The notes under the pieces are model-generated. The model saw only the letters and a list, made by a program, of their open reading frames with translations, had not been told where the DNA came from and did not search any database. Below, in pieces: positions 32,743-57,118 of a DNA stretch of 64,000 nt. A program made the position numbers and the translations under genes. The DNA is from a virus (lineage: Duplodnaviria; Caudoviricetes). The stretch's first letter is position 1; the number at the start of each line of letters is the position of its first letter. The DNA lies in the IMG/VR virus record IMGVR_UViG_3300029288_000149, positions 1 through 64,000 of that record; one strand, 5' to 3'.

Positions 32743-33161
32743 TATGTGCCTCCTATTATATCATGCACTGTTTTATATAAATTTGCAGAAGTCTTACGTG
32801 TAATTGCACCAATTACACTTGCGACTCCATTCGGATTACGTTCCATGTCTTCTATTGTAAATATACCTTGAGCATATAAAGCACTTTGCAATTCTTCAGG
32901 AGATATGGTAATACCGTCAGGATAGATCAACTTCCAGTCTATACCATGCTCTGTTCCTGTGGAAATTGCCTCAGGTAAGATATTGACATTCATACCTGGT
33001 CTTGAACCTGTTACATAATCCCTAGCCACAATGTAAGTCTTATTGTCATATCTGACAACTGCAATCTTGCCTGTTAGAGAAATTATCTTTACCGTAAGTT
33101 TGTCAGTCACATTAATCTCACAATCTTCTTGAAACTGTGCCACCCATCTTATGAGCAACAT
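32742..33161 (-). CDS. Hypothetical virion/neck protein
   Basis: ORF in the head-tail joining region. Confidence 0.5.
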   Translation of the reverse strand: MLLIRWVAQFQEDCEINVTDKLTVKIISLTGKIAVVRYDNKTYIVARDYVTGSRPGMNVNILPEAISTGTEHGIDWKLIYPDGITISPEELQSALYAQGIFTIEDMERNPNGVASVIGAITRKTSANLYKTVHDIIGGT

Positions 33162-33618
33162 CTGTCAGTGTCGTATTCATGTCATTCAAAAGACTCTGCA
33201 GATTACCATTTTCAAATCTAAGTCTCGGAGCCATGCCTGGAATTGAGTATTCCAGATCAGTTATTGAGCCATCAAGATTTATTTCTCCATGCCAATTTCC
33301 ATCTTCTCTCTTATCTACTATCAAATTAAGTCTGGATGGGAAATCATAATTTGTAGCTCTGCTTCTGGCACGTGATGTCACAGGCTTCAACATTACTTGC
33401 TTATCATAAAATTGTGCACTCTTTGAATATCCAGCTCTGTAAAGTTTATTATTTTCCAAATCAGAAATAACAGACTTTGAAGAACCTTTATCCATAACAA
33501 CAGGTGTTCCTGGTGATGAACCTTTAGGAGCTGACCCACCTACTTCACCAGGTCTACCCTTATGACCATGGAAGCCTGAACCAGCACCACCTTTGAGTCT
33601 GATAGTTAGTTTAACCAT
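33118..33618 (-). CDS. Tag-cargo protein 1 (N-terminal RLKGG-GH tag + orphan domain)
   Basis: MVKLTIRLKGGAGSGFHGHKGRPGEVGGSAP at the N-terminus. Confidence 0.8.
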   Translation of the reverse strand: MVKLTIRLKGGAGSGFHGHKGRPGEVGGSAPKGSSPGTPVVMDKGSSKSVISDLENNKLYRAGYSKSAQFYDKQVMLKPVTSRARSRATNYDFPSRLNLIVDKREDGNWHGEINLDGSITDLEYSIPGMAPRLRFENGNLQSLLNDMNTTLTDVAHKMGGTVSRRL

Positions 33619-34676
33619 CACAATCTCCTTATATTCCCTGGGAATTTACCACCTTGTCCAACCTTTGCTCTTGAATCTGCAACCCATGCATCAACAGCAC
33701 CACTCTTTGAACCATATGGAGTGATAATACTGTTAGGATTCTCTTCGACATCATCTGACCAATATCGATGTTCTGCATCACAAGAGCAAGGCTCGAATGG
33801 CATAAGACAATGTGCCAATCTAAGAGTTTGCATCTCTGTCATGACAGACTCCTGTCTGCCTGACAAGTAAGATACTCTAACGACAGCTTTGGAAGAATCT
33901 GAGCATGCTGCAAATCCGATAACACACAGTAAATTGTATATGTCTAAGTCAATGATTGACAACCGTTTGCTCTTTATCAATGCTGCTCCTGCTGTTGGTG
34001 TCTCAGCAAATGCATCACCGAAGGTTATGTAATGCACACCCTCTGTTGCATCATAACTGACATATTTCACATCAACAGTTGTCAATAAGTTTGTATCATC
34101 ATCGTACTGTAATGGATCCTCACGGTCGTCATTCAGGGATGGTAATACTAATCTAGACCTCGGTATTTTTATCGTCAATACACCTGCTAATAATGATATG
34201 TAACTCGGATGGATTGGAACTGACTCACCAGGATAATAAACTACAATATCAGAAGTCGGTACAACCAAGGCTGTTGCAATAGTTAACACAACCGGGTCAA
34301 TAATATTACCACTACCATCGCGATGAGTAATTGCTACAGCAGTCTGTATATCTGTTATCGTCTTCAATCCCACACTAATAAGATGCTTCTTGTTCAGAAC
34401 AAGAGGAGTGGTAATTGGGTATTCTTCACTTTCGATATACTTAGGAGCTATAAAGTAACCCAATTCCTGTTCACGCTTCTCCTCAGCTATGGCTAGATAT
34501 CTTGCAAGATTATCTCTGTTAGATTGTCTCCAGATTGTAGTACAACTGTACACAGGAACTTCACCCGGTTTGTTCAAACCATTGAAGGCAGCGATAGGTA
34601 AACTCAACAATTCCTGATAACGATCAAGAGTTAGACCAGTTTGCTGAGTAAGAGATATGTCCTGTGTTCTAGCCAT
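33618..34676 (-). CDS. Putative head-tail adaptor/neck protein
   Basis: 352 aa; position between head and tail genes. Confidence 0.5.
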   Translation of the reverse strand: MARTQDISLTQQTGLTLDRYQELLSLPIAAFNGLNKPGEVPVYSCTTIWRQSNRDNLARYLAIAEEKREQELGYFIAPKYIESEEYPITTPLVLNKKHLISVGLKTITDIQTAVAITHRDGSGNIIDPVVLTIATALVVPTSDIVVYYPGESVPIHPSYISLLAGVLTIKIPRSRLVLPSLNDDREDPLQYDDDTNLLTTVDVKYVSYDATEGVHYITFGDAFAETPTAGAALIKSKRLSIIDLDIYNLLCVIGFAACSDSSKAVVRVSYLSGRQESVMTEMQTLRLAHCLMPFEPCSCDAEHRYWSDDVEENPNSIITPYGSKSGAVDAWVADSRAKVGQGGKFPGNIRRL

Positions 34677-34678
34677 TG

Positions 34679-54945: not shown

Positions 54946-54954
54946 AATAGGCTC

Positions 54955-55860
54955 CTAATATCTTCCCTTATTTAAGAAACTTGCATAAGCATTAGTGTCT
55001 AATATCTTCAATTCTGTTCCAACTGCAGATGCAATTAATTTCGGTGTATTACCATTTGTGTCATACAAGTCCACTGATGACATACCACTATACTTTACAA
55101 TATCTTCAAAGACTCTTGAGACAGAAGCATGATTCTCACGCAAGACAGACTCAGGTATATATCTTCCAGTCTTCTTTGCTCTTGAGATGCTTCTAGCAAC
55201 AGCAGTCTCGACATCAACCGTAACATAAATACCTTTCACTGGTTGTCCATTTCTGCTGAGTTTCTCGACCTTTGAGAGTACTGACTTTATACCACCATCA
55301 CCAGTCCCATCCATTAACACATTGTAACCATTGTCTGATGCTTCTGCCATTATTTCTTTTGCCAAATATGATGATTCTTCATGTACAAATGGTGCTCTAT
55401 TTGGATCCTTAGGATCTCCAAATTCGTATTCAGGTAACATTCCCTTTATGTCATCACCAGATGCAAGCACAGTATTATCAGGAATTTTGACAAAACCACT
55501 ATTTACAATTGTGGATTTACCAGAAGCAGGACCACCTCCTAAAATATATGAGACAGGATCTTTTACAGGAGTCTTGTCTTCAAAAAATTTCTTCTTTATT
55601 TTATCATGTAAGACTTGACGTTCTTTTGTCCAAGTACCATCAGAATTTCTGTACTGTTCCATTGTATCTAAACCATCAGGATTTGCCATCTTACCTGTGA
55701 ACACACTCTTCTTATCTACAATTTTAGTCTTTTTGTCTGAAGACAATTTACCTCTTGCTGAACTTCCTGAAGGTAAGGATCCACCATGATGACCTGGTAT
55801 ACCTTTATGTCCATGGTGTCCTGAACCTTCACCACCCTTGAGTCTGATTATGTACTTCAT
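54955..55860 (-). CDS. Tag-cargo protein 8: zeta-toxin-like P-loop kinase
   Basis: ATG 55860: MKYIIRLKGG tag; GGPASGKST, DDIK, HEESS, NVLMDGT and R..KTGRYIP. Confidence 0.82.
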   Translation of the reverse strand: MKYIIRLKGGEGSGHHGHKGIPGHHGGSLPSGSSARGKLSSDKKTKIVDKKSVFTGKMANPDGLDTMEQYRNSDGTWTKERQVLHDKIKKKFFEDKTPVKDPVSYILGGGPASGKSTIVNSGFVKIPDNTVLASGDDIKGMLPEYEFGDPKDPNRAPFVHEESSYLAKEIMAEASDNGYNVLMDGTGDGGIKSVLSKVEKLSRNGQPVKGIYVTVDVETAVARSISRAKKTGRYIPESVLRENHASVSRVFEDIVKYSGMSSVDLYDTNGNTPKLIASAVGTELKILDTNAYASFLNKGRY

Positions 55861-55861
55861 G

Positions 55862-57118
55862 TCAAAGCTCCTTATTCCTCGAGTCACCGACAGCATACTT
55901 ATCACGAAATGCTTTACTTTGATATGTAATTACACCAAACATACCTGTCTCTGACAAAACTGATGAAATAAATGCATCTTCAAATGGGACTCCATAGTAA
56001 GCATTACCAGCAGTCTTCCATGTGTTGTCAACAACATTACCACTCTTATCTACACACCATGCATGTTCTATCGGTATGTCAGCAAAGTCAGGAATGGCAA
56101 GACCTTCAACATATTGCAATTCATCATGTGCTGATGCTAGATAATATGCATTCATATAGCACAGCTTTGGCTTGCCTAATTTATACTTCTTAGGTAATTC
56201 TTGAGGAATATAAAACTTACCATGCCTCTTTACGACACCATAAATGGAATTCTCTTGCATATTTGATACTTTGTCCACAAAGTCAGTCAAGACTCTCTTA
56301 CTATCATTTGAGGAAGATACTAATACACCTCTTGGTAAGCTACCACCTTCTTGTCCAAGACGTCCCTTATGACCATGAAAGCCACTTCCTACACCACCTT
56401 TATACTGATGTGCTAATTTACCTATTAGTTGTTGGAATTCTTTGTTTTTGTAGGTAATAGTCTTCAAATTAGTAATAAATGAATCCCACATATTAGAAAC
56501 TTTTGTATCGTCTATAAGTTTACCACCATGCTTGTCTATAAGATCTTCAAGTGTCGCTTCTCTTTTAGGCAGCCATGTACTTAAGAATTTGTCCGTACCT
56601 ATGACTTTGTAATCACCACCAGAAAATTTATCAGCAACAGCATTAGCTTGATCTCTTAATACATCGAAACTAGACATATCATTGGTGTACGGCATTCTAA
56701 CAGTAATTGCAGGTGAGAAGAATATGTCATTCTCTCCAATATACATACCAGAAGCAATTGCAGCATCTTTTATGGACTGTAATTGTTCAGGAGTATTTTT
56801 ATGCTTCCAAAATGCTATATAGCCTACACCTCTTGAGCGTCTATCAGGATAAGGATAATCAACCATTAATCCTGATGCACTTTGTGCAGAATTATATCCC
56901 ATCTTATGTAATTCTTCAAGAGTGTCAGCAATTCCTGCATCAACTCCTTTAGCAACACCTTCAGCATCTCTTACTCTAACTCCCATAGAATCAATTGTTA
57001 TTGGCTTGTCTGTTGTCGATAAAACACCACGTGCGATAGATCCACCAACTTCTCCCTTACGACCTTTGTGTCCATGAAAACCTGAACCTAAACCACCCTT
57101 CAATCTACCAATAATCAT
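55862..57118 (-). CDS. Tag-cargo protein 9: two tags, orphan domain + Cys-His-Asp (transglutaminase/papain-like) domain
   Basis: ATG 57118: MIIGRLKGG tag; internal tag at ~56330-56405; CYMNA...EHAWC...VDNTW. Confidence 0.75.
   Translation of the reverse strand: MIIGRLKGGLGSGFHGHKGRKGEVGGSIARGVLSTTDKPITIDSMGVRVRDAEGVAKGVDAGIADTLEELHKMGYNSAQSASGLMVDYPYPDRRSRGVGYIAFWKHKNTPEQLQSIKDAAIASGMYIGENDIFFSPAITVRMPYTNDMSSFDVLRDQANAVADKFSGGDYKVIGTDKFLSTWLPKREATLEDLIDKHGGKLIDDTKVSNMWDSFITNLKTITYKNKEFQQLIGKLAHQYKGGVGSGFHGHKGRLGQEGGSLPRGVLVSSSNDSKRVLTDFVDKVSNMQENSIYGVVKRHGKFYIPQELPKKYKLGKPKLCYMNAYYLASAHDELQYVEGLAIPDFADIPIEHAWCVDKSGNVVDNTWKTAGNAYYGVPFEDAFISSVLSETGMFGVITYQSKAFRDKYAVGDSRNKEL

Follow-up and report, generated by a model that had tools for sequence, protein, structure and literature searches.

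Short N-terminal leaders that bring proteins into a phage head have been described in T4, where the internal proteins and Alt carry CTS propeptides of 10-20 aa that attach to the prohead core and are cleaved off by gp21, Alt itself being an ADP-ribosyltransferase that travels in the head (PMC9026906, PMC7411985). The giant phages SPN3US and phiKZ possess many head ejection proteins with N-terminal propeptides, whose presumed role is prohead targeting and which the prohead protease removes; at 111-130 residues these propeptides are long, they have no short motif in common, and cleavage occurs at AXE sites (PMC7411985). Two further systems are defined by their domains. Polyvalent proteins join 2-15 characteristic effector domains in one polypeptide, with predicted delivery alongside the DNA, proteolytic processing and gene linkage to MuF and portal (Iyer et al., 2017, PMC5512222), and in the MuF polymorphic toxins of temperate phages a portal-adjacent head-morphogenesis domain is fused to variable toxin-type domains, which differ between close relatives (Jamet et al., 2017, PMC5576092).

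Here I describe a glycine/histidine-rich peptide, unnamed to date and hereafter called the tag, which in one uncultivated phage of 75 kb fronts 14 unrelated domains, and which in thousands of further uncultivated phages separates the domains of giant effector proteins. Its probable role is that of a common signal by which proteins travelling in the phage head are loaded and released. A likeness outside the systems above is to the cargo-loading peptides of encapsulins, which combine alternating hydrophobic residues with a Gly-rich linker and dock unrelated enzymes inside an HK97-fold shell. Those peptides are usually C-terminal, have another consensus and are uncleaved; the tag shares the hydrophobic residues and Gly-rich linker, and is N-terminal or internal.

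As with the T4 CTS (IPI-III and Alt), the tag is a short N-terminal leader common to unrelated proteins encoded near head genes; the cargo would include ADP-ribosyltransferases, as two cargo types, and a prohead protease of assemblin fold, the kind that removes the CTS in T4, is present and might remove the tag. The two leaders differ in that the T4 CTS (MKTYQEFIAE), which is necessary and sufficient for encapsidation, has ~10 residues and ends in a gp21 site (L/I-x-E), while the tag is a Gly/His motif of 25-30 residues, with no L/I-x-E and no sequence likeness to the CTS. Further, the tag can lie internally, with as many as 10 copies in one protein, and extends over many head lineages; the CTS does not reach beyond T4 relatives. 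The large number of proteins bearing an N-terminal leader recalls SPN3US and phiKZ, although their long propeptides, lacking a common short motif, are unlike the tag. The cargo repertoire (ART-PolyVal, zeta toxin, MPTase-type zincins, ParB, LigT, GNAT and NUDIX) and the linkage to MuF and portal genes are those of polyvalent proteins, but in this phage the domains are dispersed over 11 genes, all of which open with a tag and carry one or two cargo domains. The words glycine and linker are absent from the text of Iyer, Burroughs, Anand, de Souza and Aravind (2017, PMC5512222), so that the conserved inter-domain motif appears undescribed there, and a motif, linker or cleavage finds no mention in Jamet et al. 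(PMC5576092). The fusion to a portal-adjacent head domain resembles that of MuF toxins; unlike in these, it is the N-terminus that varies, with the head domain at the C-terminus, the Pfam Phage_Mu_F model fails, and no immunity gene was identified.

Sequence and arrangement of the tag

A six-frame regular-expression scan of the analysed stretch of phage DNA (64,000 nucleotides, hereafter the window) identified 12 tag copies, all on the minus strand and in frame with nine ORFs (Table 1). Nine copies are N-terminal and three internal, the latter being second copies in ORFs 34679, 44863 and 55862. This agrees exactly with the original prediction, which had listed the same nine ORFs by their lower coordinates; each is on the minus strand, and its translation carries the motif. 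The whole genome (G000; 75,316 bp, CheckV 96%) holds 14 copies in 11 tagged genes of 1-3 domains per gene, two of them beyond the window; these are carried by ORFs 70038-71051 and 71062-72135, each of which encodes an HExxH zincin. Genome-wide, 10 of the 14 copies lie at or near residue 1, and the remaining four are internal.

Table 1. Positions of the tag copies and of the head-module features in the window.
Feature	Position	Strand	Description
Tag copy 1	33508..33615	-	N-terminal, gene 33118-33621; orphan cargo
Tag copy 2	35657..35764	-	N-terminal, gene 34679-35764
Tag copy 3	35141..35248	-	Internal, gene 34679-35764; second orphan cargo
Tag copy 4	42470..42577	-	N-terminal, gene 42098-42577; orphan cargo
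Tag copy 5	43322..43429	-	N-terminal, gene 42659-43429; ART-PolyVal cargo
Tag copy 6	44226..44333	-	N-terminal, gene 43995-44333; orphan cargo
Tag copy 7	44759..44866	-	N-terminal, gene 44336-44866; weak GNAT-like cargo
Tag copy 8	46777..46884	-	N-terminal, gene 44863-46884/46893
Tag copy 9	46018..46125	-	Internal, gene 44863-46893; ahead of cargo B and the conserved head domain
Tag copy 10	55753..55860	-	N-terminal, gene 54955-55860; Zeta_toxin cargo
Tag copy 11	57014..57121	-	N-terminal, gene 55862-57118
Tag copy 12	56315..56422	-	Internal, gene 55862-57118; ahead of putative Cys-His-Asp cargo
Major capsid protein candidate	39109..40485	-	Synteny and language-model lead only
Prohead maturation protease (predicted)	40527..42047	-	Assemblin fold, H139/S188, Zn-ribbon insert; acidic coiled-coil scaffold-like tail fused
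Spacer, ART gene to gene 42098	42578..42661	-	In frame with both, one TAA
Conserved portal-adjacent head domain	44866..45504	-	~210 aa, 4 Cys, NCRC...CxxC; C-terminus of gene 44863
Portal candidate	46890..48827	-	Language-model score 0.96 to Phage_portal clusters; directly upstream of tagged head-domain gene

The tag is 25-30 residues long and follows the pattern (hydrophobic strand)-K-GG-x-GSG-xx-GH-x-G-xx-G-xx-GGS, in which a hydrophobic strand of 5-6 residues leads into a core (K-GG-x-GSG-xx-GH-x-G-(R/I)-P-G-xx-GGS) followed by a Gly/Ser/Ala linker. Thirteen of its positions do not vary (K, GG, G, S, G, G, H, G, G, GG, S), and in 4 of the 14 copies an I stands in place of the R of GRP. The core pattern had 0 occurrences across 200 genome shuffles, against the 14 observed. 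N-terminal copies are preceded by a Shine-Dalgarno-like motif, with the start codon usually 7-8 codons before the GG (11 in one gene); from this spacing, the true starts of 54955, 55862 and 43995 lie downstream of the longest-ORF starts.

No match to the tag was found in Pfam, PHROGs or PDB sequences, consistent with the original prediction, which had named no family for the peptide. Two isolated tags gave no Pfam family at E <= 0.05, with G-patch, AT-hook, collagen and RTX all unmatched, and the nine tagged proteins gave no known Gly-rich motif family at E <= 0.1 (Pfam). The tag strings are absent from the searchable literature, and searches of PHROGs and INPHARED relatives for a cultured phage with the tag were negative. 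AlphaFold predicts the tag to be disordered (pLDDT 34-44), as would be expected of a linear motif read by a partner.

From G7, the core can be read as five G-X-Y triplets (GNF-GHA-GRP-GEV-GGS), which would suit an uncleaved tether or assembly element that binds an invariant partner, be it packaged DNA, the portal channel or other tags. Contact between tags would then be polyglycine- or collagen-like (GXY x 5), and the cargo domains would be kept in an inner body and drawn out with the DNA. The extreme conservation of the tag over unrelated head lineages also points to an invariant partner, and insertion of a tag-cargo module within the head domain is tolerated in some relatives. However, five triplets are too few, since a stable triple helix needs more than that; AlphaFold gives the tag no structure, the Pfam collagen, AT-hook and G-patch models do not match it, the change of R to I falls within GRP, and uncut cargo fused to a portal would never reach the host. 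I therefore consider such a tether improbable.

Cargo domains

The segments that follow the tags are mutually unrelated, as had been claimed (best E 0.049, BLAST), and the notion of a portable tag-plus-cargo grammar is upheld in that the same tag heads mutually dissimilar domains. The cargo of gene 42659 is ART-PolyVal (E 2.4e-15, Pfam) and that of gene 54955 is Zeta_toxin (E 8.1e-23, Pfam), both of them characteristic domains of polyvalent proteins. These two identities had been proposed at the outset and stand; for the others, the GNAT match of gene 44336 is sub-threshold (E 0.02-0.03, Pfam), and neither the second ART (gene 44863), whose AlphaFold fold is of low confidence, nor the Cys-His-Asp domain (gene 55862) has Pfam support.

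The head module

The tagged head-domain gene 44863 overlaps the stop of the portal candidate, for which no Pfam, PHROG or PDB sequence match was found. The AlphaFold model of the protease ORF (pLDDT 87) has as its top Foldseek matches herpesvirus proteases (assemblins) throughout, including 2wpo (E 5.9e-4, probability 1.0). Across 46 homologues, H139 and S188 do not vary, and Pfam Peptidase_S78 was unmatched. The predicted fold thus verifies this ORF as an assemblin-type prohead protease, in the same operon as the tagged genes. Together with the portal candidate, it bears out the proposed linkage of the tagged genes to a head module, in which the capsid assignment is retained as a candidate, matching nothing in Pfam, PHROG, PDB or INPHARED. 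Tag-like sequence is absent from both the protease-scaffold protein and the putative capsid protein.

The head domain at the C-terminus of gene 44863 acts as the anchor for variable tagged cargo fusions in relatives, and had been described as MuF-like. Phage_Mu_F (PF04233) was unmatched in hmmscan (E <= 0.1) and in a six-frame search (E <= 10), and hhalign against Pfam-positive MuF proteins from tag loci gave a probability of 0.5%. At the level of fold, Foldseek matches in BFVD (list E 5e-4 to 0.1) include an entry named 'minor capsid protein' at probability 0.98 and, at 0.75-0.89, several named 'phage head morphogenesis domain', with no solved structure matched. The MuF assignment therefore fails in the profile comparisons, and has weak to moderate support from the modelled fold.

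The tag in other phages

A search with a profile built from the tag copies matched 3,691 protein clusters. Most of the top matches are giant proteins, of up to 3154 aa and with up to 10 tag copies. The top 150 hold 535 copies at a median spacing of 230 aa; in these the tag is always ahead of a domain and never C-terminal, the tail beyond the last copy being at least 147 aa at the 5th percentile. In 76 of 149 top-match proteins the first copy lies no more than 40 aa from the N-terminus, and tags precede the starts of Pfam domains by 25-100 aa. Cargo domains elsewhere comprise ART, zeta toxin, LigT, ParB_N, NUDIX, GNAT, Ntox50 and zincins; judged by these domain matches, the tagged cargo is of the polyvalent-protein or injected-effector type.

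A portal, terminase, MuF or DUF2213 gene was found within 10 kb in 32-40 of 61 tag loci, and in 10 loci the tagged gene abuts the portal gene on the same strand, the ORFs being without gap. The remaining loci hold Portal_T4, Gp23, Peptidase_S77, Portal_Mu and gpT. By Pfam families, the tag-bearing phages span HK97-, T4-, Mu-, SPP1- and lambda-like head lineages, with a G+C content of 38 to 62%.

The same tag beside such different head proteins, and over this range of G+C, could be explained by a conserved cellular partner, a protease, chaperone or transport factor of the host that reads the tag after injection and activates or places the effectors. A precedent for host involvement is the cleavage of Staphylococcus phage 80alpha head proteins by Prp, a protease of the host. 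This seems very unlikely to be the role of the tag, however, as the range of G+C, together with the MAG labels, points to hosts of great diversity, the close association with portal, MuF and protease genes would be left unexplained, and the tag has no match in PDB or Pfam; nothing like it is known among host proteins.

Direct fusions to head proteins were also identified. Portal-tag-cargo fusions are found in P0090, P0164 and a 1860-aa protein of G007, the first 720 aa of which are 53% identical to the portal of Faecalibacterium phage FP_Brigit, and MuF-tag-cargo fusions in P0039 and P0338. Such fusions require a release step, and most copies in nature are internal, between domains, which suggests that the tag might be purely a processing junction without address function, cut by the prohead protease or by tagged zincins; N-terminal copies on single-domain genes would then be leftovers of recent gene fission. 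Zincin MPTases have been proposed to process polyvalent proteins (PMC5512222), HExxH occurs in 83 of 198 tag proteins (3-5 times enriched), and both extra tagged genes of this phage encode it. On the other hand, tagged HExxH proteins are missing in 4 of 9 near-complete tag-bearing genomes (G005, G007, G011 and G012), so that a tagged zincin cannot be the universal processing enzyme. Single-gene N-terminal leaders are present on 10 genes here and on 8 in G012 (in a shortened form), under strong purifying selection, and in most of them the regular placing of the start codon is unlike that of useless remnants. A junction without any address function is thus unlikely.

Proposed mechanism

By analogy with the T4 CTS, I propose that the tag is both a leader that loads cargo into the prohead and a processing site, a reading to which I give roughly even credence. 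The tag would mark every effector domain carried in the phage head. During prohead assembly the leader would be bound by a head-maturation component, most plausibly the assemblin-fold protease-scaffold protein of the same operon, and the attached enzyme would thereby be drawn into the prohead. The leader would then be cut, and the freed cargo would exit with the DNA at infection. In giant polyvalent, portal-fused or MuF-type-fused cargo, the tag between domains would be the release site, while in this phage most modules would have been split into separate genes, each retaining its own leader.

The internal position of the tag in most phages, where it punctuates giant proteins, argues for a release or processing role besides or instead of that of an address. 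Conversely, a leader kept at residue 1 after gene fission would act for each cargo beyond domain separation. Portal-fused enzymes that act in the cytoplasm can exit the capsid only if cut, and the tag is the sole conserved element between the two parts. A near-invariant tag across differing portal, capsid and protease families fits poorly with a head partner specific to one lineage, unless the tag is read by the assemblin active site or another universal feature. In addition, at ~21 residues the conserved core far exceeds known prohead-protease sites in length, and in P0325, P0143 and P0329 the tag-cargo module is inserted within the head domain, which cleavage there would split. In P0324 and P0328, the cargo is joined to the head domain without a tag, which also speaks against the proposal.

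A broader reading, which I put forward tentatively as something less than probable, is that the tag serves as an interchangeable, near-universal plug: a feature shared by head-maturation machineries would read it, and it would load and release any cassette. I am equally tentative about its scope, namely that any tag-cargo cassette would work in any phage of the HK97-, T4-, Mu- and SPP1-like lineages. If the plug reading is true, the tag would be a sequence handle to thousands of unknown injected anti-defence or takeover enzymes, as well as a ready-made packaging label for phage engineering.

Exchange of cargo at tag borders

In homologues, the head domain is 85-89% identical while the tagged cargo is exchanged, with the borders at the tags. 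A related phage has structural genes 47-68% identical to those described here and none of the other cargo in common. With a tag common to many phages, tag-plus-cargo cassettes could be swapped and be functional at once; rapid cargo turnover beside a frozen tag sequence would follow from such exchangeable cassettes.

Since the swap borders coincide with tags, the repeat might alternatively act at the DNA level, as a recombination linker of which the peptide is a tolerated by-product. The spacer between the ART gene and gene 42098 contains the fossil of a past junction, in which 38/45 nt match the opening 15 codons of the head domain, and a few pairs of tag copies have 81-87% DNA identity. Over 75 nt, however, most pairs are only 51-75% identical; homologous exchange would be inefficient at so low an identity and so short a length, and the peptide is conserved in genomes throughout the G+C range given above. 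The invariant residues are encoded by varied synonymous codons, with serine from both the TCN and AGY families and a mean third-position identity of 0.56, which indicates that selection acts on the peptide. These codon data largely refute a DNA-level linker, which I regard as barely credible.

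Tag copies and selection on the peptide

The genome from which the window is taken measures 75,316 bp, is 96% complete (CheckV) and holds nearly all of its genes on the minus strand. A six-frame scan of the window found exactly 12 copies of the tag, a Gly/His peptide of 25–30 residues, every one in frame with the nine open reading frames (ORFs) of the original prediction. Translation confirmed that all nine are present and bear the motif, and the second internal copy expected in three of them was seen in 34679, 44863 and 55862 (genes are named by their low coordinate). Two extra copies lie beyond the window, in a pair of zincin genes, and a profile search of the genome returned 14 copies and no other match. 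The alignment shows 13 invariant positions, K-GG-x-G-S-G-xx-G-H-x-G-xx-G-xx-GG-S, with a short hydrophobic strand in front, and the core pattern had 0 occurrences in 200 genome shuffles. N-terminal copies possess a Shine-Dalgarno-like sequence and a start codon usually 7–8 codons ahead of the GG (11 in one gene), and the leader therefore starts at residue 1.

Selection acts on the tag peptide rather than on its DNA. Pairwise DNA identity between copies is 51–87% over 75 nt, and synonymous codons vary freely at the invariant residues (mean third-position identity of 0.56 among the copies of this phage), and each of the two invariant serines has a TCN codon in part of the copies and an AGY codon in the rest. 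The same peptide is found in genomes of 38% to 62% G+C.

Cargo and head genes

The 15 cargo segments of this phage are without significant mutual similarity (best E 0.049), as had been claimed. Of the named enzymes, one ART and the zeta-like kinase were recovered by Pfam, the GNAT is seen below threshold only, and the putative second ART and Cys-His-Asp domain gained no Pfam support, AlphaFold confidence being low for the second ART. Gene 54955 has a further match, to the central part of a 1440-position PHROG profile with the annotation ‘minor head protein’. The remaining tagged cargo has no Pfam match, and about half of the cargo falls in no known family. One of the two tagged zincins carries a Cys-rich N-terminal piece of 60 residues ahead of its tag; the pair lies ∼6 kb upstream of the terminase candidate.

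Features of the phage genome (window coordinates unless stated; tagged and head genes on the minus strand)
Feature	Coordinates	Observation
Tagged zincin genes, outside the window	genome 70038–72135 (ORFs 70038–71051 and 71062–72135; locus L001:6038–8135)	HEVMH and HELGH motifs; no Pfam match to cargo
Gene 54955	from 54955	Zeta_toxin cargo, Pfam E 8.1e-23
Thymidylate synthase gene and two methyltransferase genes	49037–54129	terminase candidate to portal gene
Likely portal	46890–48827	language-model score 0.96 to portal clusters
Gene 44863	44863–46893	C-terminal head domain
Gene 44336	from 44336	GNAT cargo, sub-threshold in Pfam
Basic ORF, 190 aa	43426–43998	untagged, among tagged genes; no family found
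Gene 42659	from 42659	ART-PolyVal cargo, Pfam E 2.4e-15
Spacer, ART gene to gene 42098	42578–42661	in frame with both; one TAA
Predicted prohead protease with scaffold-like tail	40527–42047	assemblin-like predicted fold
Probable capsid protein	39109–40485	synteny and language-model lead only
Two GT2-type glycosyltransferase genes and a DUF1360 membrane protein	35766–39011	directly after capsid candidate
Glycosyltransferase gene	36085–37314	kept in two of the three other genomes of the same head lineage

Sequence searches with the portal, capsid and protease proteins found nothing in the PDB, six-frame searches for Peptidase_S78 and SU10_MCP were empty, and the portal has no profile match. The protease ORF has more than 100 homologues, in which H139 and S188 are invariant. 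Its residues 1–290 were predicted with a pLDDT of 87, and the top PDB matches of this model are solely herpesvirus assemblin proteases (E 5.9e-4, probability 1.0). The C-terminal half is helical and acidic, and the modeled protein is best described as a prohead protease that continues into a scaffold-like tail. It contains an inserted four-Cys zinc-ribbon (CPHCG...CPKC), which explains why JGI names its homologues ‘phage FluMu protein Com’ or ‘ribosomal protein S27AE’, and the fused tail is a very acidic coiled coil.

The C-terminal 210 residues of gene 44863, encoded next to the portal and originally called MuF-like, are predicted as a helical domain with a Zn-ribbon (pLDDT 85–97). Among predicted structures, this head domain resembles some labelled ‘minor capsid protein’ and others labelled ‘phage head morphogenesis domain’; membership of MuF itself was not upheld, with no Pfam MuF match and a negative profile comparison.

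All tagged genes are on one strand. Five lie between the portal and protease genes, two follow closely on the capsid and glycosyltransferase genes, another two are found between a weak terminase candidate and the portal gene, and the two outside the window are upstream of the terminase candidate. The start of the untagged basic ORF overlaps the end of the preceding gene.

The tag in other phages

I built an HMM from the 14 copies and searched it against 1.84 billion representative proteins. The search returned 3,691 proteins (clusters) at E <= 0.001, of which 709 reach E <= 1e-10, bringing out the diversity of cargo and, in IMG/VR loci, the linkage to portal and MuF that the original prediction had led one to look for. 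The best matches are giant proteins that reach 3154 aa in length and carry as many as 10 copies. The top 150 proteins hold 535 copies, spaced by a median of 230 residues. In 76 of 149 proteins the leading copy lies no more than 40 residues from the N-terminus, and 0 of the 535 are near a C-terminus. The wider consensus in this set is [KR]-GG-P-GSG-[NH]-[FH]-GH-A-GRPG-E-V-GGS-A-P, followed by a Gly/Ser/Ala linker.

The tag stands 25–100 residues ahead of domain starts. The domains between tags include Zeta_toxin, ART-PolyVal, ADPrib_exo_Tox, DRAT, LigT, ParB_N, GNAT, NUDIX and Ntox50, as well as a PI3/4-kinase-like domain and zincins of several families, HExxH cargo being 3–5 times enriched in tagged proteins. 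This is the domain set of the ‘polyvalent proteins’ (Iyer et al., 2017).

Several natural proteins combine structural domains with tag-cargo modules: Phage_portal-tag-x-tag-x-tag-x-tag-oxidoreductase (P0090); Phage_portal_3-NUDIX-...-tag-...-tag-...-tag-Ntox50 (P0164); in phage G007, three tag-cargo modules behind a portal that shares 53% identity with the one of Faecalibacterium phage FP_Brigit; Pfam MuF inside a protein punctuated by tags (P0338); and, in P0039, a truncated MuF that precedes three tag-cargo modules. Near-complete genomes hold 1 to 16 tags, usually in one island of 10–17 kb, and no family common to all nine tag-bearing genomes was found at BLAST level. One of these arrangements, in phage G011, whose head genes match those of the window, is a single 1133-aa open frame with four tag profile matches. 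Another, in a complete phage with direct terminal repeats (G012), consists of at least eight single-cargo genes (loci L095–L098, e.g. 13333–24106) with a shortened leader, in which a hydrophobic strand (Mxxhhhxx) is followed by GHxGxPGxxGGS, without GGxGSG. This defines GHxGxPGxxGGS, with the hydrophobic strand, as the minimal conserved core.

Across 70 IMG/VR loci, tagged genes are most often accompanied by portal, large terminase, MuF and DUF2213 genes verified with Pfam. Such a marker is within 10 kb in 32 (strict count) to 40 of 61 tag loci, and 10 loci have a tagged gene that directly adjoins a portal gene in the same orientation. The other tag loci hold Portal_T4, Gp23, Peptidase_S77, Portal_Mu, Mu gpT or Phage_cap_E. 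The tag therefore crosses several head-assembly lineages.

Cargo exchange at tag borders

Homologues of gene 44863 have head domains 85–89% identical and differ in their tagged cargo, which may be an M90/ATLF-type zincin, DRAT or LigT. Similarity breaks where tag 1 ends and where tag 2 starts; some head-domain variants begin exactly at tag 2, others have a tag-cargo module inserted inside the head domain, and in two proteins an untagged LigT is fused directly. A related phage has portal, protease and capsid genes 47–68% identical to those of the window and, over the 40 kb examined, lacks all of the other cargo. In the spacer that separates the ART gene from gene 42098, a copy of the head domain's first 15 codons survives (38/45 nt identical), a recombination fossil. 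Breakpoints of this kind would suit a tag serving as a recombination linker only, a reading that is nonetheless extremely improbable given the free use of synonymous codons and the low DNA identity behind an invariant peptide. Single-cargo genes keep the leader at residue 1 under strong selection, and this retention points to a per-cargo function, such as prohead recruitment.

The head domain is interrupted by inteins in some relatives (P0331, P0335 and P0336, and the Pfam MuF protein P0338), which suggests that it is essential and conserved. These inteins carry Vsr/DUF559-type endonuclease domains.

Proposed role of the tag

The capsid-targeting sequence (CTS) of T4 binds the prohead interior and is then removed by the maturation protease (PMC9026906, PMC7411985). 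By analogy, and with about an even chance of being right, I propose that the tag is a leader of this type: it would bind the prohead interior, recruiting each cargo, and would then be cut by the maturation protease, releasing it. The presence of an assemblin-fold protease is compatible with this role, as is the tag's predicted disorder, AlphaFold having given no structure for it.

Nothing but the tag is conserved where a structural anchor (portal, MuF) is joined to an enzyme, or one enzyme to the next. Its junction position, before enzymes that need the host cytoplasm, argues for a release site. That it is a processing junction only is rather unlikely given the retained leaders of single-cargo genes; an uncleaved tether or homotypic element is distinctly unlikely, since cargo fused to the portal would not reach the host uncut. 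The recruitment and release arguments point different ways, and together suggest a dual role. Any model that gives the tag a lineage-specific head partner meets its main difficulty in the spread of the tag over several head lineages. A signal read by the host would be another way to account for the tag, and is very unlikely beside the linkage to head genes.

Tagged zincins may process tags where present; as a universal processing enzyme they were rejected, being found in 5 of 9 near-complete genomes. Likeness to a ubiquitin tail (LRLRGG) or double-glycine leader was dismissed because Pro, a poor P1' residue, usually follows the GG. An AT-hook was set aside on the change of R to I in four copies and the acidic flanks, and the RTX nonapeptide, FtsZ GGGTGSG loop, TonB box and 2A skipping peptide share partial strings with the tag only.

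Novelty and significance

Phages carry proteins in the head and inject them, and effectors that travel there with a leader and undergo proteolytic processing are a known concept. A shared head-loading signal is not known to be established beyond T4 and its relatives, and no processing sites are known to have been defined in the widespread polyvalent proteins. What appears new is the motif, its breadth and the dispersed gene layout.

The peptide indeed belongs to no named family in the collections searched: Pfam, PHROGs and PDB sequences (the last by profile) gave no match. Its motif strings are absent from the searchable literature, which does not prove the motif undescribed, and such a motif is not mentioned in the polyvalent-protein (PMC5512222) and MuF-toxin (Jamet et al., 2017; PMC5576092) papers. 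With tblastn against 50,697 GenBank phages, neither the whole 44863 protein nor the tag, whose query was probably masked for low complexity, had a match, and the capsid candidate and protease have no relatives in this set. The tag is absent from FP_Brigit, which among cultured phages is nearest to one tagged portal fusion. Every carrier found is an uncultivated phage, with none cultured among PHROGs, GenBank phages and FP_Brigit. One narrow tag pattern gave a single confirmed match in 185,579 species-representative genomes, weak evidence for rarity in cells because the common N-F variant is outside the pattern.

The tag would offer a searchable handle for listing candidate injected effectors, most of them in no known family, and a defined place at which to test whether polyvalent proteins are cut into active pieces, as has long been proposed, making both their loading and their processing directly testable. 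It may also provide a small label for loading foreign proteins into phage heads. As its carriers are all uncultivated, it would give an experimental opening into part of viral ‘dark matter’.

Neighbouring genes

One of the GT2-type genes following the capsid candidate has an extra Glyco_trans_1_2 domain, and the DUF1360 gene is kept in all three other genomes of the same head lineage. The thymidylate synthase and methyltransferase genes suggest modified DNA. Bases 1–125 of the contig are repeated exactly at genome positions 72643–72767, ∼2.7 kb from the contig end; this is not a terminal overlap.
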